Assembly: GCA_016866755.1 (NCBI GenBank) | Contig: VGLK01000005.1 | Location: forward strand, 10,272-74,271 | DNA: 64,000 nt | DNA from: Candidatus Saccharimonadota bacterium | GTDB lineage: Bacteria > Patescibacteriota > Saccharimonadia > Saccharimonadales > Saccharimonadaceae | Direction of reading: 5' to 3' | Shown: positions 26,437 to 43,267 of the stretch, in pieces | How the letters are laid out: every line of letters begins with the position of its first letter | Position numbering within the stretch: the first letter of the stretch is position 1 | Program-made: the position numbers and the translations under genes | The notes under the pieces: generated by a model | Database searches by the model: none | The model's input: only the letters and a program-made list of their open reading frames with translations | What the model was told of the DNA's origin: nothing

Positions 26437-26448
26437 GGGAGAAAATAC

Positions 26449-26736: not shown

Positions 26737-26810
26737 TCAGGCGGAAGCTTTCAAGATATTACAATCTAAGCTAAAGTAAAGCGAGCCTAAAATTAGGCGA
26801 TAGAAACACG

Positions 26811-26836
26811 TGGTTCGAATCCAGCCGCCGGAGCCA
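26811..26836 (+). pseudogene. displaced tRNA-Asn 3'-end fragment (T-arm half, acceptor, GCCA)
   Basis: TGGTTCGAATCCAGCCGCCGGAGCCA versus tRNA TGGTTCGAGCCCAGTCGCCGGAGCCA; no 5' half upstream. Confidence 0.8.
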
Positions 26837-27055
26837 AGCCAAGCAGAGAAAATCGCAGACCTAGTTCCTAGACCTGCAATAACTTCTCTCCTTGGTCAGT
26901 CAAGAAGAAGTTGTACTGACAACAAGGTACAAATGTTGGAACCGCCAGAAATGGCGGTTCTTTCATTGCATCTCTGTAGGCTGGTTCTAACCCAGCCTCT
27001 CCCGTCCTGAGGGAGCAAGCAGCTCCAAAGCCGACCTATTCCCCAGACCTGTTCA
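26837..27055 (+). repeat. tRNA-trailing block, copy 2 (second degenerate tRNA-end remnant at 26983-27014)
   Basis: Collinear with 23603-23825; same hairpins (26837-26850/26884-26897; terminator 26939-26960). Confidence 0.8.
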
Positions 27056-27087
27056 CTCAAGTAAGAAAGTATATAATTAGAATCAAT

Positions 27088-27660
27088 ATGAATACGGAAA
27101 AACTCATCAAATTCTTCAACGCTAAGCTAGAGAAGATATCAGAAATCAAAAATTTAAATGACTCCGATGATCCGGAATTTAAAGCCTGGTGGAATACAAT
27201 CACATCGACTTGTGAGCGCATGGGTGAATCCTACAAAAAACGTGCCGACCAAATTCGTTTTTATCCGAGTATAACGTTTGGAGATGGAGACAGTCGTCCG
27301 TATGTTCGTGCATTTCAGAGTGGAGTCAGTAGTGCAGATGCCTTTGTAAGATCTATTATTGAAGAGCTTGAAACATGGGGCTATGAGCCTAAGACATTAA
27401 CTGATTCTTCACAGACGCTTGACCGGGATAAGTTGATTCTAAACCTTACAATAAGCCAGCAACAAGTGCAGCAAATTACACAAACTATAAACCTGTCTCA
27501 ATATGATGCCGATGTGCAGGAGAAGGTGCAAGAGCTCCTCGACGAGCTCAAAAAAGAGACAAAGGATAAACCAAAAATAGTAAATTTAGTTAAGTGGCTA
27601 GCAGATAAAGGTACAGATGCACTAATAGCAGTATTGTTAGCAGCAGCGCATCTTACTTAA
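27088..27660 (+). CDS. hypothetical protein
   Basis: 190 aa ORF with no recognisable motif; hydrophobic C-terminus. Confidence 0.5.
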   Translation: MNTEKLIKFFNAKLEKISEIKNLNDSDDPEFKAWWNTITSTCERMGESYKKRADQIRFYPSITFGDGDSRPYVRAFQSGVSSADAFVRSIIEELETWGYEPKTLTDSSQTLDRDKLILNLTISQQQVQQITQTINLSQYDADVQEKVQELLDELKKETKDKPKIVNLVKWLADKGTDALIAVLLAAAHLT

Positions 27661-27662
27661 GC

Positions 27663-28934
27663 CTATAGCTTATAAAATTCAAGCTCACCGTTCTTTATCT
27701 GTAGCATCGGTCCCATGTTTGCTGCCAGGGCGGTTCTCTCGCTATCGGTACCATCAGCAAGTACATATCGAGCATACTCCACGAACGGGTTATCAAGTTT
27801 TTGGTCAATCTTGTAGTGTGTGAATATCGTCTTGGTTGTAAAAAAGTGTTTATCTACTCTGGCGCGAAGCTTATCCGTTATTTTTATATCTTCATGATGT
27901 TTCTCAATAAAGCTCTGCATTAACTCGCAAAGTTTTTCCTCATTCACATACTTCTCAGCACAATTCGGGTCTTTACGTTTTGTGCAGTTGTAATAGACGA
28001 ACCTCTTTACATCACCACTCTTTAGGGTTTTGAACTTGTCCTGAGCTGTGATATCAGCTGTACATCTTCCGCATTTCAGTAATCCTCGAAAAGCAAAGGT
28101 CTTTGACCCCCATATACCCTTATTTACTCCTCGTGTTTCCTGCACTATATCAAATAGTTCTTTGGATATGAGTGGCTTATGAGCGCCGTTGTACCATGGC
28201 GCATCCGGTGCTTCAGGATACTGAAACTTACCGTAGTAGAAGGGTGTACTTAAGATTACTAGTATCTGACTCACGCTTATTGGTTTGCCTGAGCGGTTCG
28301 TGAAACCTTGTTCATCGAGCCATGCTTTTATCCTGCGCCCGCTCCAGCGTTCGTATCCTGCTTTTTGAAAGGCTTCAATAATAAACTCTGCACGATCTGG
28401 GTCGATAATAATATCGTTAACTCCAGCGAAAGCACGGTTCATATAGCCAAGTGGAGCGACTCCGGGTCGCCACCCCATTTCACATTTGTTTCTGATGCCT
28501 CGTTTGACGTTAATACTCTTGTTGTCATTCTCGAGTTTTGCCTGAGAACAGAGAATCATTAGTAGAAACTTCTCATTCGGGTTATTCGTGAATGTCTGCG
28601 AATAGGTGCGTATATGCAGTAGTTTGCCTTGATCCATCAAGTCTACAACCGCACCTAAGTCACCAGCATTCCTGCTTAATCGATCAGGAGCCCACGTTAA
28701 AATGGCGTTATATTCTTCGTTTGTGATTCCTTTGAGTAATTTGTTATATTGCGGGCGTTTTCCTGAATCTTTAGCAGAGTGGCTTTCTTCTAATTCACAA
28801 ACCACGTTCAGGCCTTCATTATCAGCTAGGGCGCGCATTTCGTTGAGTTGAGAGTCAATAGACATTGCTTGACGCTCATCGCTCTCGGAGCTCTTACGTG
28901 CGTATAAACAGTATCTTAGTGGTGCTATTTCCAT
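27663..28934 (-). CDS. large serine recombinase
   Basis: Resolvase-type N-terminus YARKSS...SIDSQ, DRLSRN; recombinase domain; Cys-rich zinc-ribbon region (CGRC...YYNCTKRKDPNC); 423 aa. Confidence 0.9.
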   Translation of the reverse strand: MEIAPLRYCLYARKSSESDERQAMSIDSQLNEMRALADNEGLNVVCELEESHSAKDSGKRPQYNKLLKGITNEEYNAILTWAPDRLSRNAGDLGAVVDLMDQGKLLHIRTYSQTFTNNPNEKFLLMILCSQAKLENDNKSINVKRGIRNKCEMGWRPGVAPLGYMNRAFAGVNDIIIDPDRAEFIIEAFQKAGYERWSGRRIKAWLDEQGFTNRSGKPISVSQILVILSTPFYYGKFQYPEAPDAPWYNGAHKPLISKELFDIVQETRGVNKGIWGSKTFAFRGLLKCGRCTADITAQDKFKTLKSGDVKRFVYYNCTKRKDPNCAEKYVNEEKLCELMQSFIEKHHEDIKITDKLRARVDKHFFTTKTIFTHYKIDQKLDNPFVEYARYVLADGTDSERTALAANMGPMLQIKNGELEFYKL

Positions 28935-28983
28935 ACCAAGGACAACTGTACCGCGATGGCTATGTAAGTCTAGCCCTAATTGA

Positions 28984-29631
28984 TTATTTTATTGGGTAAA
29001 AGAGTCCTTTGTATTTCTGCTCATCAATGCCATAGCTGACCAGTATTTCCAATACATTATCCAAGCTATTTTTTGTAGGGATGAGGTAATACGAATCACT
29101 TCTAGCATCAAAGCCATTTTCAGTCCATGCGAGAACAGCCAGGGCGAGTATACTGCAAGTTTTTATTTCAATGCTTAGTACATCTTTTATGTCTTTAACG
29201 ACATTCCAATAGTCGGTTCTGTTATTTGGAAAGTCCCAACACATAACAAGAGGTATTAGATTGTCGGTTTTTACCCCACGTCTATTTGTTAATACTGCTA
29301 TGTCATCTAGAAGATTTCGTGGTGCATCGAGGATCGCAGTGGATGGAATCTCAACCTCAGTGACTATCCCGTAGCCGCCGCTAGGGTTATCAATAAGTAC
29401 ATCATACCGTTCATTTACGTCACCTTTGCGAGGGAAGTGTGGGTTCAGGTCTAGTTTTTCGCACAGAGCCTTGATTAGATATTTAAAGCCATTTGGGTCT
29501 AGTTTTAACCTCTGATAACTTGATACTAATAGATCCATCTTTTGATTTAATTCAAAGTCATTACTTACAAGCTCGAATATGTAATCATTCTCTTCGGGCT
29601 TTAATTCTTGTTTTGTCTTATAGATTTGCAA
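28984..29631 (-). CDS. putative small nuclease subunit of the restriction enzyme
   Basis: ERYDVLIDNPSGGYGIVTEVEIPST aligns by eye with ERFDVIIPDTKYSIPVEVKSPT of the 568 aa neighbour; 14-nt overlap with it. Confidence 0.5.
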   Translation of the reverse strand: MQIYKTKQELKPEENDYIFELVSNDFELNQKMDLLVSSYQRLKLDPNGFKYLIKALCEKLDLNPHFPRKGDVNERYDVLIDNPSGGYGIVTEVEIPSTAILDAPRNLLDDIAVLTNRRGVKTDNLIPLVMCWDFPNNRTDYWNVVKDIKDVLSIEIKTCSILALAVLAWTENGFDARSDSYYLIPTKNSLDNVLEILVSYGIDEQKYKGLFYPIK

Positions 29632-31324
29632 AGCTGATCACTCCTCTTACATCAGAAAAATCAGAGATTAAATAAGTCTTATTATTTAACAAACAATAAT
29701 AAGCCGCCGTCAGTAATACATCTACGTTTGATATGGCTACATTAATATCATATGTATTATGTATATCTTCGATTAGTTTATAAACATCAGAGCGTTCATT
29801 CGGTATATTATATCCAACCGCAAACGTGCTAATTTCCCGAATAGTAGGGTATGGTCGGCTATATCTCGACAACAGAACAACTTTGTTTTCTAGGGCCTGC
29901 CTAACGGCCTTTACTGAAAGCATTACTTCTTCTGTTGGCGACTTAACTTCTACAGGGATCGAATATTTCGTATCCGGAATTATTACGTCGAAACGTTCAT
30001 TGTTTACGCCTGCCTGGGGAGCCCTAGCGTCTAAACCAAAAATTATTTGAAATAGTTCAGCTATAAAAGGATAGAATTCCACCTGCTTCATGCCTATAGC
30101 ATCCTTGTTTATGCTTTTGATTGCATTGTGCGTACTGCCATCCCATTTATCCAATTCATCTAGCAGTTTATGCTTGGCACTGTTACGCTTAGTCGCTATA
30201 GAGTTGGTCGTCCCAATGGGCTTATTTGATTTAAATGTGTAGCCGGTTGAAGTAGAGTCACCTACTGAAAAGTCTATAGTCTTGTCGCCAATATCGGTTT
30301 CGTATTCAGGAAATAAATCCCTGGCATCTTGCTTATTGAAGTATTGATATGGAGAGAATAGTATATCCTTTCCGCCAAATACCTCTTCTGCTATGTTACC
30401 GGCATCAGTCATGTTCGCCAACTCCTTGTCTACGATGAAGTCTGCTCGCTGTAACATCTGTAGAAAGCTCAATTTAGAGACCTCCCGAACCACTTTGTCG
30501 TCTTTTTTGAGCAAAGTATTGCCATCAATAGAGACTGTGTTATCTAACCAGGTTATCATCTCACTACCCTTTGAAGTAACCTTCAGAAAATCTTTATTAG
30601 ACCCATAGACCGTACTAACATCTTTTTCTAGCCAACCAGAAAACACTAAGGCAGATATCACGAAACGTGTGTAGTTTCTCATGGTATTGAGAGTGATACC
30701 AAGTTTATCCGACAATTTGAGTAGCTCTAACTCTAAATTAGAGTACTTCTTTGTAGAGCGGATAACCTTTATCTTATTGGCGGCTTGTTTAATTTCATCA
30801 GAATTATACCCATTTGATAAGTTCATTGGTCCGACTAAAATTTCGTCACGGCAAATTTCACCATCCAGTAAGGCTACGGTTTTCATGATACTAACAAACG
30901 GCTTGTTAATGTCGCTGAATCTAACATCCAGAATTTTATTAGGGTAATTGATGCCCAAGAGGCATTGCTCGAAGAGTTTGTTGGAGGAATCTCCAGCAGT
31001 TGCGACGTGAATTCCGAGAAATGTAAAATTGAACCTTAACGCTGCATCCTCACCGGAAACAATCCATCCGAGAAAACGGTAAACCTCGGCATACATTTTC
31101 GCTTGGTTGTATAGGGGGTTTCTGGACGTGTCTTTTCGCTCATATGACCTTTCGAGTGCTTGTATCCCGATATATCCTGATGAGCTTGCAACGTTTTCGC
31201 TCACCATGATATCCGCCATGTTATTCAAATCAAATGACTGAGTCTCGGACAAGTTCGCGTATAGAAGCTTAAAGATATTTATCAACTGATTAATATCAGA
31301 GCCAGGGTTTGGGAAGCGGATCAT
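29618..31324 (-). CDS. putative Type II/IIS restriction endonuclease, large subunit (AlwI/BstNBI-like architecture is a guess)
   Basis: 568 aa; C-terminal PD-(D/E)xK-like IPD...VEVK; adjacent to two methyltransferases. Confidence 0.55.
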   Translation of the reverse strand: MIRFPNPGSDINQLINIFKLLYANLSETQSFDLNNMADIMVSENVASSSGYIGIQALERSYERKDTSRNPLYNQAKMYAEVYRFLGWIVSGEDAALRFNFTFLGIHVATAGDSSNKLFEQCLLGINYPNKILDVRFSDINKPFVSIMKTVALLDGEICRDEILVGPMNLSNGYNSDEIKQAANKIKVIRSTKKYSNLELELLKLSDKLGITLNTMRNYTRFVISALVFSGWLEKDVSTVYGSNKDFLKVTSKGSEMITWLDNTVSIDGNTLLKKDDKVVREVSKLSFLQMLQRADFIVDKELANMTDAGNIAEEVFGGKDILFSPYQYFNKQDARDLFPEYETDIGDKTIDFSVGDSTSTGYTFKSNKPIGTTNSIATKRNSAKHKLLDELDKWDGSTHNAIKSINKDAIGMKQVEFYPFIAELFQIIFGLDARAPQAGVNNERFDVIIPDTKYSIPVEVKSPTEEVMLSVKAVRQALENKVVLLSRYSRPYPTIREISTFAVGYNIPNERSDVYKLIEDIHNTYDINVAISNVDVLLTAAYYCLLNNKTYLISDFSDVRGVISFANL

Positions 31325-31356
31325 ATGTCCGTTATTATAGTGCAGTCAGAAACAGT

Positions 31357-32196
31357 TTACAAACTAAGAGTATGATTGTGAAGCTTTTGTAGGCGCTCAT
31401 TTGTTACATCAACCCACCTCTGCTCAAGCTCCAGGCCAATCCATTTAATATCATGGCCTTGTTGGTTTAGCTTTTCGCAACAAACACCTAATGTGCCAGA
31501 TCCATGAAATGGGTCCAGGATTGTGCCATTATATTTTCCATTTGAATCTTTTGGGCAGTACGCCTTGATAAGCTCGGTAATTAGAGTCTCTGGCTTCTGG
31601 GTAGGGTGGGCGGTTCTTTCTTTGGCGAAGTTTTTACCTGCAAGTGTGGGGTATGCCCATATGTCGCCTCGTAGTGCACCTGCCGGGTTTGCCGTCCACT
31701 CTTTTTTAATTCCATTTTTATCCTTGTAATAAACAGGAGATTTTAACCTATCGGTGCTTTTGTAGGGAACTCTTACGTCATCAGCGTTGTAGGTCCACTC
31801 CTTGTTAGAATTGGAAAACCATAGAAAAGGCTCGTATTGAGTCGCGGGTGATTTTTTACTCCTGGAGAATCCGTTTTCGTAAAACCAGATATTCATACCC
31901 CTGTAAAACATACCTTCTTCATACATAAGAACCTGTAGGTAGCCGATGTATCTGTGTATGCCGAACCAAATCAAACTGCCACTATTAGTAAGTAGTCTGT
32001 GACATTTGTTAATGCGTTCACGACTTGTAGATATAAACTCATCAAGCGGCAGGGAGTCTGATTTATTTCCAAAATCTTTATCAAGGTTGTAGGGAGGGTC
32101 AGTGAGTATTAAGTCAAATTTAATGCCTTCATCGATCATTTGTGACATTACCTCGTCACAGTCGCCCTGGTACGCCCGATTGTATTCAAAGGTCAT
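31357..32196 (-). CDS. DNA methyltransferase (N6-A/N4-C, beta-class motif order)
   Basis: LILTDPPYNL (motif IV) then LDPFHGSGTLG (motif I). Confidence 0.85.
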   Translation of the reverse strand: MTFEYNRAYQGDCDEVMSQMIDEGIKFDLILTDPPYNLDKDFGNKSDSLPLDEFISTSRERINKCHRLLTNSGSLIWFGIHRYIGYLQVLMYEEGMFYRGMNIWFYENGFSRSKKSPATQYEPFLWFSNSNKEWTYNADDVRVPYKSTDRLKSPVYYKDKNGIKKEWTANPAGALRGDIWAYPTLAGKNFAKERTAHPTQKPETLITELIKAYCPKDSNGKYNGTILDPFHGSGTLGVCCEKLNQQGHDIKWIGLELEQRWVDVTNERLQKLHNHTLSL

Positions 32197-33323
32197 GCCT
32201 TTTTCGCCTCCATCTTTCTGAAAATAAGAATGTACTGATGGTGGATGTTTTCTACGTATGCAAACGGATAGCCATATGGCAGAAGGCTTTTATGGTTCTG
32301 TATTAAAACTTTTACACCCTGCAGCACCATTTGATATCCATCGCTAGTAAGTTTCTGGTCCATGGCCTGGATTAAATCGCTGTGAAAACTGATGAACTTT
32401 GATTTGTTTCGGAAGTCAGATACTACCAGACACATATATTTGTTAGGCCTGAGTACGCGACCGCTCTCCATAAAAAAGTCATCGACTAATATCTTCAGGA
32501 ATTCATCATAATCTTGAACATTCCCAAGGTCTCTTGCGTCGCCGTCTGAATAGTTTGTCGCTAAGTTGTTGGATACCCGGTCTTTTACCTTGTGGTCGGC
32601 CTTTTTGTTTAGGATTGACCAGTAAGGTGGACTGGTAACCATGAAGTCAAAAGAGGAGTCCTCAAAGTTGCGCAATAACTCTCTTGAGTCGCCTGTGATG
32701 AAGTCGTGCTTTTTTGATGCACCTTCCGACACCTCTGTCTCTATACGTTCTTTCGCTAACTCACTCCACGTTTCTTGAAGCTCTATACTCGTACAAAAGC
32801 GACCGTTTAGTTCACAGGCTTTAGCTGTTGAACCGATGCCGCCAAACGGATCTAACACACGTGCACCCTTCTTTGTAAAGAAAGTGATTAGCTGTTCGAT
32901 ATCTTGGAATGAGTATGGCGCAGGGTGCATCCTTTCAATTTGAGCATGTGGATGCTTGGAGCCAAGCCCTTTCTGGTACATATAACTTTTAGTTGCGGGT
33001 AGCCACTCTGTGCCATTTAAGTCATTTAGCGAGTTTCTCTTATCGACGGGCTTTCTCTCATCAACAAGGGATTCGATTGCGTTGTCTTTCTTAAATTTTG
33101 ACGGCTTTTGAGGCGCCTCTATACTTTTGCTTGCCTCCTTGAAGTTCTCAAGTGTATCCATGTCAAATCGTCGCTGACCACCTGGCGTCTTTGACGGCTC
33201 TAATGCCCCTGTCTCGACCATTCTATAAACAGTAGAGATACTTACGCCCAAAAAATCAGCCGCTTTTTTAGTGCTAACGGGATGGTTATTTTGTGATTTT
33301 TTCGTTTCCAAAGTTTCTTCCAT
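32193..33323 (-). CDS. DNA methyltransferase with N-terminal excisionase/MerR-type HTH
   Basis: STKKAADFLGVSISTVYRMVETG HTH; LDPFGGIGSTAKA (motif I) then MVTSPPYWS (motif IV); ATGA overlap with the downstream methylase. Confidence 0.85.
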   Translation of the reverse strand: MEETLETKKSQNNHPVSTKKAADFLGVSISTVYRMVETGALEPSKTPGGQRRFDMDTLENFKEASKSIEAPQKPSKFKKDNAIESLVDERKPVDKRNSLNDLNGTEWLPATKSYMYQKGLGSKHPHAQIERMHPAPYSFQDIEQLITFFTKKGARVLDPFGGIGSTAKACELNGRFCTSIELQETWSELAKERIETEVSEGASKKHDFITGDSRELLRNFEDSSFDFMVTSPPYWSILNKKADHKVKDRVSNNLATNYSDGDARDLGNVQDYDEFLKILVDDFFMESGRVLRPNKYMCLVVSDFRNKSKFISFHSDLIQAMDQKLTSDGYQMVLQGVKVLIQNHKSLLPYGYPFAYVENIHHQYILIFRKMEAKKA

Positions 33324-33344
33324 ACATTAATTGTACCGCTACTA

Positions 33345-33374
33345 TCAACACTAATCAACACTAATCAACACTAA
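33345..33374. repeat. three perfect tandem 10-bp units (TCAACACTAA) 22 nt upstream of the HTH-methylase start
   Basis: Read directly: ACTA-TCAACACTAA-TCAACACTAA-TCAACACTAA-TTAATA. Confidence 0.9.
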
Positions 33375-33512
33375 TTAATATATCTTCAATAAAATTGGTA
33401 CTACATAGACACAATCTTTTCACAGCTAACAAGCGATTGCCTAATCAAAAGATACTGTTCTGTATACAAACTGGATGCTACTATTCAAGTAATACAGTGC
33501 ACATATAGTAAA

Positions 33513-33980
33513 TTAGTAGGATTTTTCCAAACAACTTACTTCACTTTTTGTTGCATAAGCAGCCCCGTCTCGAGATATAGTCACCAAACCTTCGAAGTAC
33601 TTAGTCTCTCCAGGTTTAAGCAATGTGTCCCAGGTGACATAATCAATACCTTGGTATTGGCCATCTGGGCTTTGTATGCGGATATTACATGCAGGATTTG
33701 CGTCTACGACGCCCGTATTAGTAACAGTGAAAGTCAATCTTCGCCGGGTGTCGTCAGCGAAGGTGTTGCCAACGACTTTTATTTTGTAGTCAGGCTTTGC
33801 TGCAGGTTCTCCGGCGTTATCTTGTGTTTGGTTAGTGATAGGTTCTTCGTAGGCGCTGTCCATACTGCTACCTAAGAATCCTGACAAGAAGGGTAAGAAC
33901 ATAAAGATAATTATCAAGATTCCCCACCATCTGGTATACCATTTCTTTTTGCTAGATTGTTTAACGGGCTGTTCCTGCAT
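33513..33980 (-). CDS. membrane-anchored protein, possibly Ig-like (DUF4352-like)
   Basis: N-terminal TM helix, beta-rich C-terminal part; weak family guess. Confidence 0.45.
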   Translation of the reverse strand: MQEQPVKQSSKKKWYTRWWGILIIIFMFLPFLSGFLGSSMDSAYEEPITNQTQDNAGEPAAKPDYKIKVVGNTFADDTRRRLTFTVTNTGVVDANPACNIRIQSPDGQYQGIDYVTWDTLLKPGETKYFEGLVTISRDGAAYATKSEVSCLEKSY

Positions 33981-34178
33981 ATGTGTTCTCCTTCGCCAAA
34001 GTAATGCCGCACTTCAGCGAAGAAGTCCATATAAATAAAAAGGACAGCCACGCTGGACTGTCTAGGACCCAAACAAGCAGTTATGCCTATTCTTTTTTAC
34101 GTAGCTGCCCATTTTACGGCACAACTACGCAAACGTTTGCGTTAACTAATTGTTTGAATCCTAGACAGTCTTATTATA

Positions 34179-35952: not shown

Positions 35953-36124
35953 GGCAAAACCTCCTATGTGAGGCTGTCGTCGACTGGAATAAAAAGAGCG
36001 TTCCAGGAATCGATCGAACAGCTGTTTAATACTGTTGATCAACTCGTGAAACGCGATATATTGCGTGTTAACTGGTTACACACGGTGATTGATAATCTTA
36101 TTTAAGCATAAAAAATTTGATAAA

Positions 36125-36766
36125 TCAATTACTGGTCTTTCGCATACGTTGGAGCCTCTTATATATAGGTTCGCCATAGATTCTTTCTTCAAGCTTCTTC
36201 CAGCCTGTTCTTGGCAGGCTCTTTTTTGCGGCATAGCCCGTAAATTCTGCCCGTTTTACGAGTGCGGCGTAGCTAAGACTTGTTGCGGTTTGATGTTTTA
36301 ATACAACCAGATCTCTTGCTGTGCACGAACCTTTAACCACATCCATTTTATCAAGGTCTTCGTGGAACATGGATGTTGGGTAGATGAATTCGGCAGCAAA
36401 AACTTCAGCGCCAATTTCTTTTAATTCATCTTGGACTTGGGTGAGACAGAAAGCTCCCACGGAATCCCGATCCATGAGATGATGCTTCAGTTCATGCGCA
36501 AGAGTAAAAATATATGGCTCATCGGGCAGTCGTGCGATAAGAACTGCAGGTATCCCGCTAAGGTCGGGGAAGTAAACACCCCTCAGTTTCTTAAAAGCCT
36601 TACCGCCCATGCCTGCCATCGGCCATTGATCGATGCCTATTCCGTAATGTTTGTAGATTTTTCTAAATTCAGTACGTGATATGCGTGCGCCGCTAATGTT
36701 AAATAGCGCTCTTTGCTCGTGCGCCAGAGTCTCCATTTTCTTGTAGTAATCTGAACGCTCCGACAT
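36125..36766 (-). CDS. ImmA/IrrE-family zinc metalloprotease
   Basis: HExxH as LAHELKHHL; located directly downstream of the XRE repressor gene. Confidence 0.8.
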   Translation of the reverse strand: MSERSDYYKKMETLAHEQRALFNISGARISRTEFRKIYKHYGIGIDQWPMAGMGGKAFKKLRGVYFPDLSGIPAVLIARLPDEPYIFTLAHELKHHLMDRDSVGAFCLTQVQDELKEIGAEVFAAEFIYPTSMFHEDLDKMDVVKGSCTARDLVVLKHQTATSLSYAALVKRAEFTGYAAKKSLPRTGWKKLEERIYGEPIYKRLQRMRKTSN

Positions 36767-36777
36767 CTTAGGCTAAC

Positions 36778-37119
36778 CTACTTTTTTCTCAACTGACTTT
36801 GTGCATTTTTTATTTGTGCAAACTGAGTTAATGCCTCTATGTCATCTTTATGAAGACCTTGAGCTGCGCGCATCAGTCCCGCGAGGGGAGCGGGTGTATT
36901 TTCCTCCGGGAAGAAAGATGAAATTGGCTTACTAAAAAATTTCGCTAAATCATCGAGATCCTTGAGTTTTGGCTTGTATACGGCCTTTTCCCATCTAGAA
37001 ACGGTATTAGCTGCAACACCGAGTTTACTAGCTAAATCTTCTTGAGAGAGACCCTTGCCTCCGTTGTAAGAGGTACGGAATTCTTTGATTCTTTCGCCCA
37101 CATATTTTGATACTTCCAT
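36778..37119 (-). CDS. XRE-family HTH repressor
   Basis: LSQEDLASKLGVAANTVSRWEKAV. Confidence 0.85.
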   Translation of the reverse strand: MEVSKYVGERIKEFRTSYNGGKGLSQEDLASKLGVAANTVSRWEKAVYKPKLKDLDDLAKFFSKPISSFFPEENTPAPLAGLMRAAQGLHKDDIEALTQFAQIKNAQSQLRKK

Positions 37120-37138
37120 GATACTCCATTCCTTATAA

Positions 37139-37190
37139 AGGATATTATATTCCTATTTTTGTTGACATGCAAGTTAAATAGGAATATCCT
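37139..37190. promoter_or_regulatory. divergent control region: two AGGA..TCCT palindromic boxes bracketing a TTGACA-17-TATCCT promoter
   Basis: AGGATATTATATTCCT (37139-37154), TTGACA (37162-37167), AGGAATATCCT (37180-37190, overlapping the -10). Confidence 0.5.
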
Positions 37191-37286
37191 ATAAATGTAG
37201 CAGTTACTCAACACAAAAAGGATTGCTTAACTGACGGAGTGATGAGGTGTATCACTTTTAAAATCCTAACAGAAAGGGGATATGGT

Positions 37287-37535
37287 ATGACACAACGTGA
37301 TTATCACGTAACCCGGCGACCAGACGGTCAATGGCAATATAAACTTCCACATGCACAACGTGCATCGGGTATAGCAAGTACGCAGGCTAAAGCTGAAATA
37401 GCAGCTAAACAGTCGGCTCGTAATGGTGGTGCCGGTGGTGAAATTACAATTCACCGACCAAACGGTCAAATACGTGATCGCGACACAATTTCACCCGCAA
37501 ATGATCCTAATCCACCCAAAGATGCGAGGCATTGA
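37287..37535 (+). CDS. DUF2188-like small protein
   Basis: HVTRRPDGQWQYK...ASTQAKAEIAAKQSARNGG..ITIHRPNGQIRDRDT pattern; GGGGA upstream of ATG 37287. Confidence 0.6.
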   Translation: MTQRDYHVTRRPDGQWQYKLPHAQRASGIASTQAKAEIAAKQSARNGGAGGEITIHRPNGQIRDRDTISPANDPNPPKDARH

Positions 37536-37536
37536 T

Positions 37537-38463
37537 ATGGGTGGATTTGTTATTAGCAACAAGCGTCGCATCCGGTCTCTGGTAAGTAATTTGCCAGAGA
37601 CCCTGAAGGGCAAGAGTATTGTACTGGCGGTTGATTTGTCGTCAAACCTCGCAAAGGCGCGACGCATAGGTTTCAGCGAGAATCCGACAGTGGGCGACAC
37701 TCTGCTTCCAAATGTCATTGGTCCTGCAACGCGTCTCAATACCTATGGCCGTGACATTATCCGTCGCGACAAAGAGAAAGAGACGCTGTATCGTGAACAT
37801 GCTTGGACTCATCAAGAGTGGGCAGGACGGGGTGAAACACGGACCGTAACTACTTATGTATCGATTCCTTACAAGCGCTTCCCGCGCGATCATGTCGAAG
37901 GATTTGAGATTGAGTTGTCGATTCGTGAGAGCAATGGAAAATTGATTATTGCTACGCTAGACCCAATTACGTACGATGACAAAAGCGCAGCTTTACTGAC
38001 TGCAGCAATTAACGTATATCTTGAAGTATTTGGATATGTGGAACTTTTTGATCAAAAACTCAGTCCGATACCGAAGCCAATGACCGTACGTCGCCTGAAC
38101 TGGGATGTATTGCCTAAAGGTGAAAAAATTACCAAAGAGAAGCTGAAAAATATTCTGTCGAAGTCGAAGCGAATTCGACCCGTAGAATGGAATCGTCAAG
38201 AAAAAATCAGTAGTTATAACCCTACCGAAATCGCCATCGGTACCGCAGGGTTTTCAGGGTATATAATTTACGTATTTCCTGAAAAGAAACTGGCCGTGCT
38301 AGAGAGTCTAAAGTACGGCAATGCAAGTTACATACTCGATGACGGTAGGTGGGAGGATCTGTCAAAATTAACTAAGCAACAGTTGCTATCGGCAAAACTG
38401 GTAAAAGCCCGTGAAGTACATTATGGTGCATGGGGTACGCGCATCGATAGGATACTGAAGTAG
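37537..38463 (+). CDS. hypothetical protein (308 aa)
   Basis: ATG 1 nt after the upstream TGA; no recognisable motif. Confidence 0.6.
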   Translation: MGGFVISNKRRIRSLVSNLPETLKGKSIVLAVDLSSNLAKARRIGFSENPTVGDTLLPNVIGPATRLNTYGRDIIRRDKEKETLYREHAWTHQEWAGRGETRTVTTYVSIPYKRFPRDHVEGFEIELSIRESNGKLIIATLDPITYDDKSAALLTAAINVYLEVFGYVELFDQKLSPIPKPMTVRRLNWDVLPKGEKITKEKLKNILSKSKRIRPVEWNRQEKISSYNPTEIAIGTAGFSGYIIYVFPEKKLAVLESLKYGNASYILDDGRWEDLSKLTKQQLLSAKLVKAREVHYGAWGTRIDRILK

Positions 38464-38464
38464 C

Positions 38465-38968
38465 GTGAGTCGTCGCACGCCCTGGTTTGAACACGTTTTA
38501 AGCGAGTATTCGCGGAGTACTGTGGTTGCAGTCTCCGCGATACTTGCCGTATTGCTGATGCTGTCGCTGGTCCAATTCGTGAAGGGCGGCGCTTTTGTTT
38601 GGAATGATATTGCGCTAATAGATCAACCAGATATTCTTAGCAGGACGTTCTATAGCGCATTAACGTTTGTATCAATAGGGGCTATTCTTTACCAACTACA
38701 ATTCTATAGGTTCTTGTCGTGGATATTCGGCTCTGACCGTAGCAGCTACAAAGAAGCAAAGCGCATCATATGGGTTGGTCTGATATTAATCATGTATTGG
38801 TATATCGTGCCGGTTATCGTTGATTTGTTGAATTCTACCGTGTCATTCGCATACAATGTTTCACTACTTGTATTGTATTTGTCACCTGTTCTTTTTATAG
38901 GCGTGGCAGGCTTATTTATTGTAGCCACTGTTTACCGAGTAAAATTAAAGAATGTACAAACACCTTAA
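38465..38968 (+). CDS. polytopic membrane protein (4-5 TM)
   Basis: GTG start 1 nt after the upstream stop; hydrophobic spans. Confidence 0.55.
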   Translation: MSRRTPWFEHVLSEYSRSTVVAVSAILAVLLMLSLVQFVKGGAFVWNDIALIDQPDILSRTFYSALTFVSIGAILYQLQFYRFLSWIFGSDRSSYKEAKRIIWVGLILIMYWYIVPVIVDLLNSTVSFAYNVSLLVLYLSPVLFIGVAGLFIVATVYRVKLKNVQTP

Positions 38969-39584
38969 AGATCACCGGTACTATAAAGAACTTTATGATC
39001 GACTGACCGTTGAGTCTGCTCGTCGCGGTATGAGCCATTACGATACCTTTTACTCTGAATTCGAAAGTAAGCTTCCTGTAAGTGAGAAGGTCGACAAGCC
39101 CGGTAGTGCTTTCTTGCTGAATGTTTTCTATATGGAAACTGTTGGTAGCGAACTCCTTGATCGTTATGAAAACCGAGATAGTAAAATCCAGGAATGGATC
39201 AATAGGGATCGGGCAAAAGATGAACAGATATCGTCAGCACGACTAGCAGAAGAACCTTCGTGTCAACACTGTGACAAACAGGGGCTCCGGATTATCGACA
39301 AATCGCTGATGCATCGAGGTGATGCATATGAGATTGATGATCCCGAAGAGGTTCTCTTTATGTTGCGGTGTCCTCACTGCGACAAGAACAGCGCTTTTTG
39401 GGAAGATGGCAAGGAGCGTGTAGATTTCAGCTACAGACCTGCTGGTACTACTGTATTTTACGGTACTAAAGTTCGTGAGCAGCCAGACGTAGACCTGAAC
39501 GCTCTTTGTGCTCACACGCCAGCAAACTCAACCTTCCGTGCTGACTGCATAGAAAGATATAGGCGTCAGTATTATGGCAACTAA
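38952..39584 (+). CDS. hypothetical protein with CxxC...CxxC zinc ribbon
   Basis: CQHCDK ... CPHCDK; overlaps the upstream gene by 17 nt. Confidence 0.6.
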   Translation: MYKHLKDHRYYKELYDRLTVESARRGMSHYDTFYSEFESKLPVSEKVDKPGSAFLLNVFYMETVGSELLDRYENRDSKIQEWINRDRAKDEQISSARLAEEPSCQHCDKQGLRIIDKSLMHRGDAYEIDDPEEVLFMLRCPHCDKNSAFWEDGKERVDFSYRPAGTTVFYGTKVREQPDVDLNALCAHTPANSTFRADCIERYRRQYYGN

Positions 39585-39605
39585 ACTTATGATATATTTA
39601 TACTA

Positions 39606-40223
39606 ATGCCATTCCCTGCCACAACGAATGCCGACTACTTCACCTTTAATGTTCACAGCTCCCTTCTGCTTGTGGGGCAGACTGGCTCTGGCAAAACGGA
39701 GCTGGTGCAGCGATACATCAAACGACTAGAGCGAGCGTTTACGCCTGAGCAAATGCAGTATATTCTATATGACCTTAAGCAGGTTGGGATTGGCACCAAG
39801 GACGGAGGCGGTGCAAAAGCAGAATACCTTTATACACCGGTACGTACTGGTAAACCAGAATACGTGGATTACCTTGAAGAGCTAGCCGACCTAGCTCAAG
39901 CGAGAGCTGAGGGCAAGGAGCCAAAGGACAAGCTCCTATTTATCTATATCGAGGAGTGCGACCTCGCTGTCCAATATCCAGAGAGATTTCATGCTGCGGT
40001 AATGACAATAAACAAGTACGCTAGAATGGCTAATATGAAGCTAGTCTTCTCTACATCTAGCCCAAGGCGAGACGTCATCCCTCCAGATTTCCGCGATAGC
40101 TTCGAGCTAATACTGAGCGGGCCACTTGCAGGCAAGTTTGATGAAGAGACGCTAGGCGTATCCGACACACAGAGTATAATGTTTCCGTATGAATTTATAG
40201 TCAAAGAGGTCAAAGCAGGCTGA
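39606..40223 (+). CDS. minimal FtsK/SpoIIIE-like P-loop ATPase
   Basis: Walker A GQTGSGKT, Walker B LLFIYIEECD, then MKLVFSTSSPRRDVIPPDFRDSFELIL resembling the FtsK motor RAxGIHLIxATQRP..VI block; only 205 aa, no TM region. Confidence 0.6.
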   Translation: MPFPATTNADYFTFNVHSSLLLVGQTGSGKTELVQRYIKRLERAFTPEQMQYILYDLKQVGIGTKDGGGAKAEYLYTPVRTGKPEYVDYLEELADLAQARAEGKEPKDKLLFIYIEECDLAVQYPERFHAAVMTINKYARMANMKLVFSTSSPRRDVIPPDFRDSFELILSGPLAGKFDEETLGVSDTQSIMFPYEFIVKEVKAG

Positions 40224-40224
40224 T

Positions 40225-40857
40225 ATGGCATATATCACCGACCAACTTCGCTGGCAAGAAACAATGAACACCGTCACAGTAGACTGTTCGCTAGATATTG
40301 CTATACATCCTGCAGAGTCTGATACGGTGCTACTAATCATTCCTGGTGTAGACGGCTCAGTGAATGGCTATCAAGACAAGTACATACGCATAGCCGAGCA
40401 GGCACAAGACAGGTATGGTATAGCGGCTGTGCGTATTGCTAACCCATTCATCAGTTCATTCCACTGGGAGAGTAATCCTCGCCGCATACTGGACTACATA
40501 GCTAGTAACACTGACACTATCGCGGGAGGTGGTGAAGCAATTCGCATTAAGATAATGGCTCACTCTGCTGGGGCATCAATAATAACGAAGATAGCCCACG
40601 AGTACGACAATATAACCGACCTGCTGCTTGTTAATCCAGCCGAGAAGCTTGACGGTGATGCTATACGCAGCGGACTTAAGAAGACTGACGCCAAGGTAAC
40701 AGTAATATTTGGCGAGAAAGACCCCTCTGTGAGCTTCTCAGAGGCTCTACGAGGCGATGGACGCAGGGTTGTAGTACTTGAGGGTGCTGACCACAATTTC
40801 TCTGGTGAAAACCTACAAGCATTTATAGAACTACCCGAAAGGTACTTGCTATCATGA
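40225..40857 (+). CDS. alpha/beta hydrolase
   Basis: Nucleophile elbow MAHSAGAS; C-terminal EGADHNF His. Confidence 0.6.
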   Translation: MAYITDQLRWQETMNTVTVDCSLDIAIHPAESDTVLLIIPGVDGSVNGYQDKYIRIAEQAQDRYGIAAVRIANPFISSFHWESNPRRILDYIASNTDTIAGGGEAIRIKIMAHSAGASIITKIAHEYDNITDLLLVNPAEKLDGDAIRSGLKKTDAKVTVIFGEKDPSVSFSEALRGDGRRVVVLEGADHNFSGENLQAFIELPERYLLS

Positions 40858-41279
40858 ACATCTATCTAGACATCGACGGCGTACTACTTGCAAATGAGGA
40901 GAACTTGGCGATCGGTGCGGCTGAGTTTATCAAATACGCCGCAGATAATTTCGATGTATATTGGCTCACAACCCACTGCATGGATGGTACGACCGATCAC
41001 GCAATAGAATATCTGCAGCGCGGAAGCGATGAAGACTTGCGGCCATGGTTAGAAAAGTTTAAACCTGTCACGTGGAGCTTAAAAAAGACGGAAGCGATCG
41101 ATTTCACAAAACCATTTATGTGGTTCGATGACGATTGCTTTAGCGGTGAGAAGATTGATCTTCACGAGCACGGAGTGTTCAATTCATGGATTGAGGTTAA
41201 TCTAGCTAAATATCCAGATCAAATGGTGCATGAGCTAAAGTTGCTAAAGTCTATCGCCGAGGAAAAGGCCACAATATGA
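40854..41279 (+). CDS. HAD-superfamily phosphatase-like protein
   Basis: Motif I IYLDIDGVLL, motif IV-like WFDDD; ATGA coupling on both sides. Confidence 0.6.
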   Translation: MNIYLDIDGVLLANEENLAIGAAEFIKYAADNFDVYWLTTHCMDGTTDHAIEYLQRGSDEDLRPWLEKFKPVTWSLKKTEAIDFTKPFMWFDDDCFSGEKIDLHEHGVFNSWIEVNLAKYPDQMVHELKLLKSIAEEKATI

Positions 41280-42010
41280 GTACTATTGATGTTGAGTTTG
41301 ATTTTCAGCAAGAGGCTGGTTTTGATAGAGCCGGCGTCCAGCGAGATTCGGATAAATACAGTCCAACACTACAGGAGTATCATCGAATCCTGTGGAGTAA
41401 ACCGCTACCAAATAGAAAAATGTTCGAGCTAACAAAAATAAGCAATAACCGCCTGTACCATAAGTCAGAATTAGGTGAGTTCTATTTATCAAGCGATAGA
41501 GCAATCGCTACCTTTTCGTCATGGGTAAAAATGAAACCCATAATCGATCAGATTTCAGCGAAAGAGCTGGATGATTTTATTCGGCTTACTGACACTATTG
41601 GCGGTATTGTGATTTGGCCGAGCAATAAAATAAATGGCTCCCAGACTATCAATGCCGCCAGGGGCTTTAACCGGCAGATAGTTGATCGCCTAGATCTGAC
41701 TATTGAGTGTATCCGGCGCTTTTATTTAGGTGAAGCTAGCCCGCTATATGAAACCTTCGTGAGGTATAGTGACTTCTTTCAACTTTTCGATGATTTTAAG
41801 GGCTATATCGACTTCTTTTTGCTACAAGATTACGTGACAGAAGATTATATGAGCGTAAAAATAGCAAAGCCTTTCGACGACTTCCGCTCGACACCGATAC
41901 CGAAAACGGTCGACGAATACCTGTCGTATATGAATATGACGAGTGAGCTGATAAAGCTAAGGAATCAAAGAATTAAAAATAACTCAACTCAAGTAAAACA
42001 ACTATCGTAG
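41276..42010 (+). CDS. hypothetical protein (244 aa)
   Basis: ATGA-coupled last gene of the operon; no recognisable motif. Confidence 0.6.
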   Translation: MSTIDVEFDFQQEAGFDRAGVQRDSDKYSPTLQEYHRILWSKPLPNRKMFELTKISNNRLYHKSELGEFYLSSDRAIATFSSWVKMKPIIDQISAKELDDFIRLTDTIGGIVIWPSNKINGSQTINAARGFNRQIVDRLDLTIECIRRFYLGEASPLYETFVRYSDFFQLFDDFKGYIDFFLLQDYVTEDYMSVKIAKPFDDFRSTPIPKTVDEYLSYMNMTSELIKLRNQRIKNNSTQVKQLS

Positions 42011-42598
42011 CATTAATCTTGATAGTCTGAAGGTTCTTTTTTCATTTCTTAAATGACAGAACGCAACAAGATAAGCAATGCCATGCTCTTTTGTGAAGTG
42101 GGATGGCGTAATTTCACGATAGGTAACTTTTTCATTAATATCTGTATATGTTATCTTTATGCGTGATTTCATAGCTATAGCACGTTCGATAGATTGCACG
42201 GTAGAGCTAGGCGTAGCCCTGGATCCATAGTTGCTGTCATGGTTGAATGATTCGCCAAAAATTTTTCGGTTATCTTTTTTCTCGTGACAGTATTTACACA
42301 GCGTCTGCAAGTTTTCCAGATTATTCGTGCCGCCCTGCGATAGCTGAACAATATGATCAACCGTAAGGTTATCTTTTCTCCTACATGAACGACAAGTATA
42401 ACTGTCACGAGCGAGTACCGCTTTTCGGATACGATCCCAGCTACTTCCAGAGGCAATTCCTTTACCTTGAATCTCACTGTCCCACTCGTTTGTCTCTCGC
42501 GGTGTAGTAACCTTTGTGGAATGCGAAGAATCTTTAGACTTTTTGTCAAAAATTGAGGAAATTATTCCAATACCTACGAGTAACGCTAACCACTCCAT
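42002..42598 (-). CDS. membrane-anchored HNH endonuclease with C-terminal WYL-like domain
   Basis: N-terminal TM helix; CRSCRRKDNLTVDHIVQLSQGGTNNLENLQTLCKYCHEKK; IKITYTD...REITPSHF...IAYLVAFCHLRNEKRTFRLSRL. Confidence 0.75.
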   Translation of the reverse strand: MEWLALLVGIGIISSIFDKKSKDSSHSTKVTTPRETNEWDSEIQGKGIASGSSWDRIRKAVLARDSYTCRSCRRKDNLTVDHIVQLSQGGTNNLENLQTLCKYCHEKKDNRKIFGESFNHDSNYGSRATPSSTVQSIERAIAMKSRIKITYTDINEKVTYREITPSHFTKEHGIAYLVAFCHLRNEKRTFRLSRLMLR

Positions 42599-42608
42599 GT
42601 AGTGCTAA

Positions 42609-43079
42609 TTATACAACGGTCTCGTGGTTAAAGACTAACTTCGGATTATCCTTCCGTAATATCATGTACGGCCCATTCGGAATTCCTCGCCCAATTATCT
42701 TTCCTTCGTGAATCTGCTTGCGAATTGTTCGCACGCTTATATTCAGCTTCGATGCGAGAATCGTATCAGGAATAGATTTCTCGTGTCGATAATCGCCGCA
42801 TAAAGATCCGGGTATCTTCCGCTTATTGATTGCATTTTGGCAATTTGAGCATTTAAAGCCCCATTTATCGAACCAGCCAGGTGTATCATATACGGATTTG
42901 AAACATAGCCCACATTGGCGGCCTTCGCCGTCCATGGCAAACCCTTTGGGGGAATCTTTGAGTTTGGCAAAGCGTGCTTTTTCTTGTTGATCTATCTCAA
43001 TTAGTAAGCTAAAGTAATCAACTAATCTACGGCGCTCGTCATTCGTAAATTCACGTCCTAATTGCTCATTATCGTTCAT
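42609..43079 (-). CDS. zinc-ribbon plus excisionase-type HTH protein (candidate recombination directionality factor)
   Basis: CGLC...CSNC; LASKLNISVRTIRKQIHEGKI; ATG 43079 preferred over GTG 43130. Confidence 0.5.
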   Translation of the reverse strand: MNDNEQLGREFTNDERRRLVDYFSLLIEIDQQEKARFAKLKDSPKGFAMDGEGRQCGLCFKSVYDTPGWFDKWGFKCSNCQNAINKRKIPGSLCGDYRHEKSIPDTILASKLNISVRTIRKQIHEGKIIGRGIPNGPYMILRKDNPKLVFNHETVV

Positions 43080-43170
43080 AGCTACATCTTCTCGTGGTTC
43101 ATTATTGCTACGATCCAATTCTATACACACCGTGTCCGATTTGTAGCGTTCTAACCCTGTTGAAAGGTTC

Positions 43171-43255
43171 GTGACCTGTAAGCGGAGCCAAGAGTATATA
43201 TGTGACAGGAAGTCCAGTAAGCATTCACGCTACAGGACTTCTTTTCGTATTAGGT
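43171..43255 (+). repeat. R-family repeat copy R1 (core GTGACCTGTAAGCGGAGCCAAG plus degenerate hairpin)
   Basis: Matches R2-R5 cores; hairpin GAAGTCC/GGACTTC followed by a T-run. Confidence 0.8.
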
Positions 43256-43267
43256 ATAATAAGTTGT

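Follow-up and report, generated by a model that had tools for sequence, protein, structure and literature searches.

What occupies the DNA behind the only tRNA-Asn gene of a Candidatus Saccharimonadota bacterium, where does it begin and end, and what put it there? The question arises from a window of 64,000 nucleotides (contig VGLK01000005.1, positions 10,272 to 74,271, forward strand), which is part of contig C5 of an 848-kb genome in seven contigs; related records are named Candidatus Saccharibacteria. A preliminary description of the window had proposed an integrative element of about 16.4 kb at 26811–43192, carrying the gene of a large serine recombinase (LSR) and bounded by a direct repeat of ten nucleotides. 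The element, designated B, is here assigned to ~26837–43190 and is one unit of a longer array. With a probability of roughly 80%, B belongs to a large family of integrative elements of Saccharibacteria and other candidate phyla radiation (CPR) bacteria, which is moved by its LSR, targets the extreme 3′ end of tRNA-Asn and stands in a stacked array at that site.

The tRNA-Asn target and the ends of element B

The intact tRNA-Asn(gtt) gene at 23528–23602 (+ strand; 72 bits in Rfam) is the sole tRNA called in the window by ARAGORN and the genome's only tRNA-Asn. Rfam gave no match over 22000–47000 except this tRNA. The T-arm, acceptor end and CCA of the gene form the chromosomal target, the B arm. 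Downstream of it, the 10-mer CGGAGCCAAG occurs on the + strand at 26829, 43183, 43832, 44311 and 44825. A shuffled window is expected to hold 0.11 copies, and five copies were reached in none of 100 shuffles. The preliminary description had allowed that the 10-mer might be too frequent in the genome to be meaningful; these five copies are the only ones in the 848 kb and all lie at the tRNA-Asn locus, so that objection falls and the recurrence of the repeat stands.

The 10-mer at 43183 sits within a repeat, R1 (TTCGTGACCTGTAAGCGGAGCCAAG), that is present four times, and four of the five copies are the core of R1, TCCGTGACCTGTAAGCGGAGCCAAG. At the right end of B, R1 is extended into a longer arm, R1a (TGTCCGATTTGTAGCG...GGTTCGTGACCTGTAAGCGGAGCCA; 43133–43190, + strand), which is a pseudo-tRNA 3′ end. 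About 58 nucleotides of 43133–43192 (TGTCTCATTTGTCTCGTTT..CCTGTTAAATAGTTCGTGACCTGTATGCGGAGCCAAG) are common to six genomes of other genera and the similarity ends just past CCAAG, which identifies this stretch as an element-borne right end. When 401 genomes of the order were searched by pattern, the R1 core turned up with one mismatch in 11 others, most of them with the variant CTGTATGCGGAGCCAAG. Extended arms make up 11 of 24 R1-type arms.

The extended right-end arm also contains a direct repeat, TGTCTC-ATT-TGTCTC (43133–43150), some 35–50 nucleotides inside the element end. It aligns in loci L045, L046, L048 and L050, is kept in the 11 LSR-element ends and is absent from cassette ends. The repeat may be a binding site for an accessory protein.

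At the left end, the sequence past 26836 (AGCCAAGCAGAGAAAATCGCAGACCTAGTTCCTAGACCTGCAATAACTTCTCTCCTTGGTC...) is the same as that past the real tRNA at 23602. Some 20 other loci have left-end arms of this AGCCAAGCAGAGAAAATCGCAGACCTAGTTCCTAGACCTGCAATAACTTCTCTCCTTGGTC type, designated P′, immediately behind tRNA-Asn or behind a pseudo-tRNA arm. The P′ arm of B (26837–27052, + strand) is nearly identical to the left-end arm of the element in genome G108, from another family of the order. As no further arm lies between 26837 and 43166, B is a single unit of 16.35 kb, with P′ on its left and R1a on its right.

The left repeat itself had been read as a 3′ fragment of the host tRNA-Asn displaced by integration. 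This part of the preliminary description did not survive comparison, as the fragment is an element-borne mimic of the tRNA. The tRNA-Asn-like 3′ end GGTTCGAATCCAGCCGCCGGAGCCA at 26811–26836 opens a direct repeat of 242 nucleotides (D1; 83% identity) with 23577–23818, a copy that begins within the real tRNA-Asn. It is the core of a pseudo-tRNA arm at 26757–26836 (+ strand), which aligns to nearly the whole of tRNA-Asn, parts resembling the D- and anticodon arms included, without the 5′ acceptor strand. Together with about 50 nucleotides of upstream context, the 26811–26836 arm recurs in five other loci (L057, L062, L070 twice, and L078); genome G108 also has it. Furthermore, pseudo-tRNA arms mismatch the resident tRNA of their own genomes, and the T-arm of the window's tRNA-Asn is identical to that in same-genus genomes with unoccupied sites. 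A native T-arm, and arms with a conserved context of their own, indicate that the tRNA body is native and that the crossover falls at its extreme 3′ end.

Since the 26811–26836 arm closes the unit to the left, unit A, element B proper starts at ~26837. The bounds first proposed were thus nearly right and need a small shift. A discrete serine-recombinase element with ends at about these places is supported by the conservation of those ends and by a relative with a 93% identical LSR and the same ends.

The serine recombinase and its tRNA preference

The LSR gene (27663–28934, − strand) reads towards the tRNA side and encodes 423 amino acids. Three Pfam domains bear out its first assignment: Resolvase (PF00239; 1e-20), Recombinase (PF07508; 1.4e-12) and Zn_ribbon_recom (PF13408; 2.2e-6). 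The reading frame is intact, with the serine motif YARKSSE and the CxxC...C motifs present, and the PDB matches are the catalytic domains of the TP901-1 integrase and of a conjugative-transposon recombinase. The nearest named models (CcrB, XisF, CcrC and CcrA) all score far under their cut-offs. The best NCBIfam model, CcrB, gave 2.7e-38 and 131.9 bits against a cut-off of 900, with CcrC at 63 and CcrA at 57.

A scan of public genomes recovered 468 relatives of the LSR, whose top-ranking rows bear the names of Saccharibacteria, Paceibacterota, Peribacteria, Woesebacteria or other CPR/Patescibacteria lineages. A convergent tRNA gene lies downstream of the LSR in 49 of the 65 family loci with enough flanking sequence. 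The gap between the two is 200–280 bp in the simplest loci and 1–9 kb where other units intervene. A maximum-likelihood tree of the LSRs places 14 tRNA-Asn loci, and none with a different tRNA, in a well-supported clade of 26 rows; five tRNA-Met loci lie in the sister clade, and deeper clades carry tRNA-Gln, tRNA-Ser and others. The tRNA labels are clustered on this tree, requiring 28 changes against 41.9 when shuffled, and none of 200 shuffles was as low. As tRNA identity follows the LSR clades, target choice is inherited with the recombinase, which is the signature of a site-specific integrase.

Two further LSR paralogues are encoded in the same genome. One, at C1:116290–123982 (52% identity), is convergent with tRNA-Gln(ttg), and the other, at C4:32277–33908 (29%), is convergent with tRNA-Pro.

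Related elements and unoccupied sites

One relative with both ends in view is that in G108, whose 93% identical LSR lies in a 15.9-kb stretch downstream of its own tRNA-Asn. This element starts with the near-identical P′ arm and finishes with an extended R1 arm. Its cargo is entirely different, comprising genes of sugar and nucleotide metabolism (an aminotransferase, an oxidoreductase, a phosphatase, nucleotidyltransferases and an NlpC/P60 protein). In Ca. Microsaccharimonas AMD02 (locus L057), tRNA-Asn is followed by a 2.5-kb cassette with a pseudo-tRNA arm and then by a 14.4-kb LSR element with an extended R1 arm. The complete genome CP011211 has, behind its tRNA-Asn, a 22.4-kb LSR element and units of 5.8 and 1.8 kb, each closed by an R1-type arm.

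A unit with both LSR-element-type ends and no LSR was seen in genome G020 (C8:29224–34856, locus L046). At one end of this 5.6-kb unit a P′ hairpin arm adjoins an R1 arm, and the opposite end is an extended R1 arm; the tRNA-Asn of G020 is unoccupied and lies on a different contig.

Two genomes of the same genus, G001 and G002, likewise have a tRNA-Asn that is followed at once by a terminator, as in G020, with the arms absent. No close LSR was found in G001 or G002. The comparison with related genomes that had been suggested therefore succeeds in part: the arms and the element are absent from G001 and G002, but their flanks are not syntenic with the window, so that what they show is absence of the element, not a clean empty site, and they provide no before-and-after pair.

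A composite array at tRNA-Asn

B had been taken for a lone unit. It is instead part of a composite island of at least 21 kb, which runs from the tRNA through units A, B, X, Y and Z to older remnants. Unit A (23603–26836, 3.2 kb) is a metal-ATPase cassette without a recombinase. It opens with its own P′ arm (23603–23818, + strand), which lies in the first copy of repeat D1, and carries at 23899–26736 (+ strand; Pfam) an ArsR-type regulator, a protein of 94 aa, a P-type ATPase of 635 aa and a zinc-ribbon protein. The genes of unit A share 85–97% amino acid identity with those of CP011211 and Ca. Microsaccharimonas AMD02, whereas in the same cross-genus comparison the flanking Wzy gene is 45–50% identical and neighbouring core genes 41–50%. 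This difference is clear evidence of horizontal transfer of unit A.

Three one-gene cassettes follow B on the + strand: X (43191–43839; 649 bp, 204 aa), Y (43840–44318; 479 bp, 129 aa) and Z (44319–44832; 514 bp), which encodes a glyoxalase-family protein of 123 aa and is closed by arm R1d (44810–44834, + strand). In each case a hairpin and then a T-run stand at the start, an R1 arm stands at the end and there is no recombinase. All three cassettes carry nearly identical R1 arms. Three further metagenome contigs keep the junction of R1 arm and X-type hairpin at 97% conservation, followed there by other genes; similarly, CP011211 has the Y/Z-type hairpin, and its arms enclose other genes. Recombinase-less units bounded by arms are also present in CP011211, G108 and G277. 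A consensus terminator scan did not call the X, Y and Z hairpins, which have loops of 12 nucleotides, and their terminator role was judged by eye. An AT-rich, promoter-like stretch upstream of the genes was likewise seen by eye, with one promoter-like match only.

Further downstream lie a diverged fifth R1-type arm (TCCGCGACCTGTAAACGGTAGCCAAG; 48357–48384, + strand) and a decayed copy of the cassette-Y gene (47176–47490), which retains 84% identity over its first 88 nucleotides and includes part of the upstream hairpin. The array is thus older and longer than its last well-preserved arm, at 44834, would indicate, and it probably reaches at least 48357–48384. A CWB2 gene (45287–47071) lies inside the cassette array.

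The P′ hairpin and the proposed integration reaction

Nineteen P′ arms share a 13-bp stem (seven and six pairs around a C/C mismatch) that starts at position +1 after CCA. In element B the stem pairs 26837–26850 with 26884–26897, and in unit A it pairs 23603–23616 with 23650–23663. Across the 19 arms, 95.5% of cells are paired, against 38–49% in controls with a slid partner. Compensatory changes occur in seven stem pairs, for example AGAGAA/TTCTCT, AGTGAA/TTCACT and AGTTAA/TTAACT. The stem matches no Rfam family. In its loop lies an inner hairpin with a terminator score on the − strand, where it faces the gene of the LSR, and about 100 nucleotides further on there is a + strand terminator-like hairpin (23704–23727 in unit A), so that the arm has terminator-like sites on both strands. 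A reasonable reading of this arrangement is that the P′ arm would insulate the tRNA and the element from each other's transcription. Insulation alone leaves the covarying outer stem unexplained.

In the reaction proposed here, the circular attachment site, attP, would consist of the right-end arm (P), a pseudo-tRNA 3′ end (...GTTCGTGACCTGTAAGCGGAGCCA), joined to the left-end arm P′, whose hairpin starts at +1 after CCA. The LSR would bring attP together with the tRNA gene's T-arm, acceptor end and CCA, and crossing over would take place within the shared GGAGCCA or just past it. The tRNA body would stay native, and the P′ arm would supply it with a new 3′ trailer and with terminators in both directions. 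Because a tRNA-like arm closes every unit, more units could stack at the same place, whether or not they carry a recombinase, and give the order tRNA, A, B, X, Y, Z and remnants. This copy of B may still excise.

The position of the crossover was assigned from the alignment of arms. The two bases that follow CCA track the sequence to their right, being GA or AA before hairpin-type P′ arms and AG before terminator-type arms. A two-base crossover core at +1/+2 after CCA was considered and rejected, since this dinucleotide goes with whichever arm lies on the right and is not the same at both junctions of a single unit. GGAGCCA is the sole stretch common to all partners; with the dinucleotide varying, exclusion leaves GGAGCCA as the probable site of the crossover.

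Several observations weigh against this reconstruction. Junctions that a strict two-base LSR core would require to match differ in the dinucleotide after CCA, with GA behind the tRNA and AG behind the 26811 arm, and the other way round in L057. No clear dyad symmetry between the P and P′ arms was seen by eye. No pseudo-tRNA arms were found at the tRNA-Gln and tRNA-Pro LSR elements of this genome. Neither side of tRNA-Asn in G001 and G002 is syntenic with the window. Other assemblies of the population, located by exact-protein look-up of the LSR and the cassette-Y protein and 100% or 98.9% identical over 42452–54295 and 26931–34045, contain no alternative junction. In CP011211 and L057, moreover, the metal genes are part of the LSR element itself, and no arm separates them from the LSR. 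Their different position indicates that modules are reshuffled, probably through the long P′ homology, and that unit borders can shift; the unit that actually moves here could be A and B together (23603–43190).

Gene content of element B

Proteins were annotated with Pfam, PHROGs, PADLOC, NCBIfam and PDB, and Pfam confirmed the gene list of the preliminary description, the restriction nuclease excepted. Between the P′ arm and the LSR gene, an open reading frame (ORF) of 190 aa (27088–27660, + strand) has a weak match to phrog_29450, a family of unknown function, and is absent from 91 loci screened (L041–L131). Beyond the LSR gene, 28984–33323 (− strand) encodes proteins of 215 and 568 aa and two N6/N4 methylases, which are candidate restriction–modification cargo. 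Of the complete restriction–modification system first reported, the two methylases (N6_N4; 31357–32196 and 32193–33323, the second with an N-terminal HTH_17 domain) are upheld by Pfam. The nuclease was not confirmed, as the 568-aa and 215-aa candidates match nothing in the five databases.

The 568-aa protein (29618–31324) has at least 979 homologues, which are unnamed, and no Pfam domain is present in any of the 120 listed. It is 47–48% identical in Bacillus, Enterococcus and Clostridium genomes. Such conservation between CPR bacteria and Firmicutes is unusually high for an unannotated protein.

A helix–turn–helix (HTH) protein of 150 aa (34179–34631, − strand), with a weak match to small terminase subunits (TerS; 5.8e-5), and a ParB_N-methylase (34609–36042, − strand), which Pfam recognises as first described, form the family backbone. 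The predicted ImmA/XRE switch is borne out by an ImmA-like metalloprotease (Peptidase_M78; 36125–36766, − strand) and an XRE-type repressor (HTH_3; 36778–37119, − strand), recognised by Pfam and PHROGs, the latter by matches to transcriptional regulator families. This pair (36125–37119) is divergent from the right-hand operon.

That operon (37239–42010) consists, as had been noted, of eight + strand genes, for DUF2188, 320/346-aa, 167-aa, 210-aa, 205-aa, 210-aa, 141-aa and DUF6994 proteins. The first 210-aa protein is zinc-binding-like and the 205-aa one has an FtsK-like P-loop, with weak similarity to FtsK_SpoIIIE (Pfam 1.9e-4, PHROGs 6.1e-9). Beyond DUF2188, DUF6994 and this weak P-loop, Pfam, PHROGs, PADLOC and NCBIfam gave nothing for the operon. 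Its last two genes are 91–97% identical in CP011211. The first large product, the 320-aa protein (37504–38463), has an AlphaFold model with a predicted local distance difference test (pLDDT) score of 89.8 from 27 sequences and no fold neighbour in PDB or BFVD (best E 0.1); homologues about 35% identical occur in a Bacillus and a Caulobacter genome.

An HNH-WYL nuclease (42002–42598, − strand; Pfam) and a zinc-ribbon protein of 173 aa (42609–43130, − strand) complete the element. The latter has a CGLC...CSNC motif and a weak HTH_17 match (6.9e-4), and homologues with 55–61% identity are found in L053, L077 and L143. An LSR of this kind would presumably need a directionality factor, and the zinc-ribbon/HTH protein is a candidate for that function or for a regulator.

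The flank upstream of the tRNA differs between relatives as well. In two same-genus genomes, the gene directly 5′ of tRNA-Asn is a 57.5% homologue of the window gene at 4848–5861. The intervening 17.7 kb (5861–23527) are absent from both, so the upstream side of the tRNA is also variable. This stretch holds about ten paralogous genes (~156–255 aa, − strand, 14144–20338), a Wzy-like gene and a gene for a 614-aa beta-lactamase-family protein, for which an exact-protein look-up gave no record.

Terminase genes and the class of the element

Library scans of the ORFs of B agree with the preliminary description that capsid, large-terminase, portal and type IV secretion genes are lacking. The scans also gave no match to relaxase, type IV secretion or Rep proteins, and no primase or replicase module is recognisable. 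B thus has none of the major capsid, portal and large terminase genes of a tailed prophage. Neither does it have the pairing of type IV secretion with relaxase, or of TraB-type FtsK with a replication gene, that marks integrative and conjugative elements (ICEs) as well as their actinomycete counterparts (AICEs). What it does have is an LSR, a divergent ImmA/XRE pair, a TerS-like match that is weak here and clear in homologues, and no virion genes, a combination that may point to the phage-inducible chromosomal island (PICI) type. The search for hidden structural or transfer genes recognised none, save for the weak TerS-like match of the 150-aa protein. The verdict that the element is neither a prophage nor an ICE is right for this copy, yet it keeps the TerS-like/ParB-methylase pair and its relatives carry a large terminase.

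The ParB-methylase and the small HTH protein occur together in 35 of the 91 loci screened and in most of 20 loci from IMG/VR, and the order ParB-methylase, HTH protein, LSR is conserved. In L147, L142 and L057, whose LSRs are 83–93% identical, the gene of the small protein overlaps that of a large terminase (TerL) of 502–505 aa. The L147 and L057 homologues of the 150-aa protein match TerS PHROGs at ~1e-10, and the TerL family phrog_38 is matched at 4.6e-81 in L147 and 9.5e-80 in L057. In B, a 155-aa gene stands at the position of TerL, together with both methylase genes and the genes of the 568-aa and 215-aa proteins. The L057 element, which is delimited in full, encodes TerS and TerL and has no structural gene. 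The genome of B has a single TerL homologue, which lies in the C1 LSR element at tRNA-Gln, 4 kb upstream of the LSR, and is 40% identical to that of L147. Neither PF05065 capsid nor PF04860 portal genes were found in this genome, in CP011211, in the L057 genome or in seven LSR-carrying IMG/VR records. The presence of TerS and TerL in relatives without capsid or portal suggests that the LSR family is phage-derived and capsid-less and fits a satellite-like life style. B is a member of this family without the large terminase, which it lost or never had.

In L147, L142 and L057, TerS and TerL are encoded directly upstream of the LSR, and the records contain no capsid or portal gene. IMG/VR classes the TerS/TerL elements as proviruses, with CheckV completeness of 8–62%.

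These findings bear on how B travels between cells. It is a real possibility, at somewhat less than even odds, that B is a phage satellite or defective provirus that integrates by its LSR, is induced through ImmA/XRE and is packaged into helper capsids with the TerS-like protein and the HNH nuclease. The proposal is about how B is transferred and does not conflict with the ends and the integration mechanism set out above. It draws on the gene order conserved through the family (ParB-methylase, TerS-like protein, LSR), on the clear TerL right after TerS in the relatives with 83–93% identical LSRs, on the 20 family loci that IMG/VR classes as proviruses or viral fragments, on the capsid and portal genes missing from the genomes and records searched, and on the ImmA/XRE pair and HNH nuclease of B itself. 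However, B itself lacks a large terminase and matches TerS weakly, a helper phage is not known, and this genome holds no PF05065 capsid or PF04860 portal gene that could serve as helper. Moreover, the G108 element, with its 93% identical LSR, has metabolic cargo only, no terminase and none of the backbone genes of B, bar one homologue of the 210-aa protein. Helper-phage packaging through the TerS-like protein, or uptake by natural competence, would be the favoured routes of transfer for B.

Other readings of the array

A bolder proposal, argued by analogy and held only tentatively, is that the tRNA-Asn locus might be an integron-like gene-capture platform run by the LSR. The LSR on B or on a sister element would load and unload self-expressed units of 0.5–6 kb that share only the pseudo-tRNA arm bounding them, with the tRNA end as a fixed docking site. 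The P′ hairpin would then be a functional part of the site or of tRNA 3′-end processing, beyond a simple terminator, and the terminase-bearing relatives would act as the carriers by which the system spreads through Saccharibacteria and other CPR bacteria.

It is unlikely that B is a fixed remnant, in which an old LSR integration has left relic arms and the array has grown by homologous recombination between them. Such a history would fit the population assemblies compared, among which there is no excision product, and the 215-nucleotide P′ arms, which at 83% identity could support homologous exchange. The changing position of the metal module relative to the arms and the decayed cassette remnants downstream point the same way. 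Against this, the LSR frame is intact with its catalytic motif, and cassettes X, Y and Z have near-identical R1 arms. Other families and IMG/VR records hold LSRs of 92–93% identity whose arms are conserved and whose cargo differs, which requires that the family has moved recently.

Direct repeats of tRNA ends are a hallmark of tyrosine-integrase islands, and the arms do resemble 3′ parts of tRNA-Asn (26757–26836 aligns to most of it), but a classical tRNA island, in which the element's copy of the tRNA 3′ end replaces that of the host, displaced fragments remain and a recombinase other than the LSR acts, is very improbable here, given that no tyrosine recombinase domain was found in the ORFs of at least 94 aa scanned over 23603–44834, that the arms carry conserved non-tRNA context, travel with units and mismatch their own genome's resident tRNA, that the resident T-arm equals that of genomes with unoccupied sites, and that the R1 arm cannot form a normal T-arm.

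Comparison with known systems

In its behaviour, the LSR-moved array resembles most closely, by analogy, the composite islands of the staphylococcal cassette chromosome (SCC, SCCmec). Both involve an LSR, whose nearest named models here are CcrB, CcrC and CcrA, and both insert at the very 3′ end of a housekeeping gene that is kept (rlmH/orfX for SCC). Both form tandem arrays in which recombinase-less cassettes with the same short repeat lie beside a recombinase unit, as A, X, Y and Z do here. In each, the cargo is highly variable, with metal resistance and restriction–modification-type genes, and there is no transfer machinery of its own. The differences are equally plain. The target is the 3′ end of tRNA-Asn, not rlmH; there is one recombinase gene in place of the ccrAB pair; and the LSR, at 131.9 against 900 bits, falls outside the Ccr equivalogs. 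The repeated site is a pseudo-tRNA arm with a covarying hairpin, and relatives carry terminase genes. A Cch-type helicase was not found, and the host belongs to the ultrasmall CPR bacteria.

With serine-integrase prophages (phiC31, Bxb1, A118 and TP901-1), B shares the resolvase catalytic, recombinase and zinc-ribbon domains, an integrase gene beside one end, a single preferred target per recombinase lineage and the expectation of a small, separate direction-setting protein. Most characterised large serine integrases are longer than 423 aa. Those of the phiC31 type that are known insert within protein-coding genes, with few bases common to attP and attB, whereas here the target is a tRNA 3′ end, the attP arm mimics ~25–70 nucleotides of the tRNA and B is without virion genes.

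The Staphylococcus aureus pathogenicity islands (SaPIs) and other PICIs are alike in length (10–20 kb), in having an integrase at one end and a divergent repressor switch, and in combining a small-terminase-like gene with defence-type cargo and no capsid genes. Unlike for these islands, no helper phage or induction is known here and no primase/replicase module is recognisable; relatives carry a full large terminase without capsid, and the LSR targets a tRNA. The likeness to integrons lies in the rows of single genes in the same orientation, each closed by the same recombination-type site, beside a fixed anchor. However, the recombinase is of the serine type in place of the tyrosine-type IntI, and scans of the region's ORFs gave no tyrosine recombinase domain. 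Pseudo-tRNA ends take the place of attC hairpins, a tRNA gene serves as anchor, and the cassettes seem, judged by eye and from one promoter-like match, to bring their own hairpin/T-run and promoter.

Significance for Saccharibacteria and other CPR bacteria

The targeting of tRNA genes is usually credited to tyrosine integrases. To our knowledge, characterised serine integrases insert into protein-coding genes and have only a couple of bases in common with their target. A literature search gave no description of serine recombinases that target tRNA ends in Saccharibacteria or other CPR bacteria. The family described here is a large LSR clade specialised on the last bases of tRNA genes, with an attachment arm that copies the tRNA end, and it gives rise to rows of stacked cassettes like those of SCCmec.

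In ultrasmall symbionts whose genomes are smaller than 1 Mb, the tRNA-Asn locus may be the main place at which accessory genes are swapped. That swapping happens follows from the near-identical cassettes in different genera, and the genes seen to take part include those for metal export, methylases, defence-like nucleases and cell-wall enzymes. If the sites and the enzyme are active, they would provide a compact tool for site-specific integration in Saccharibacteria, which are hard to manipulate genetically, and would add to the repertoire serine integrases with long, predictable targets.

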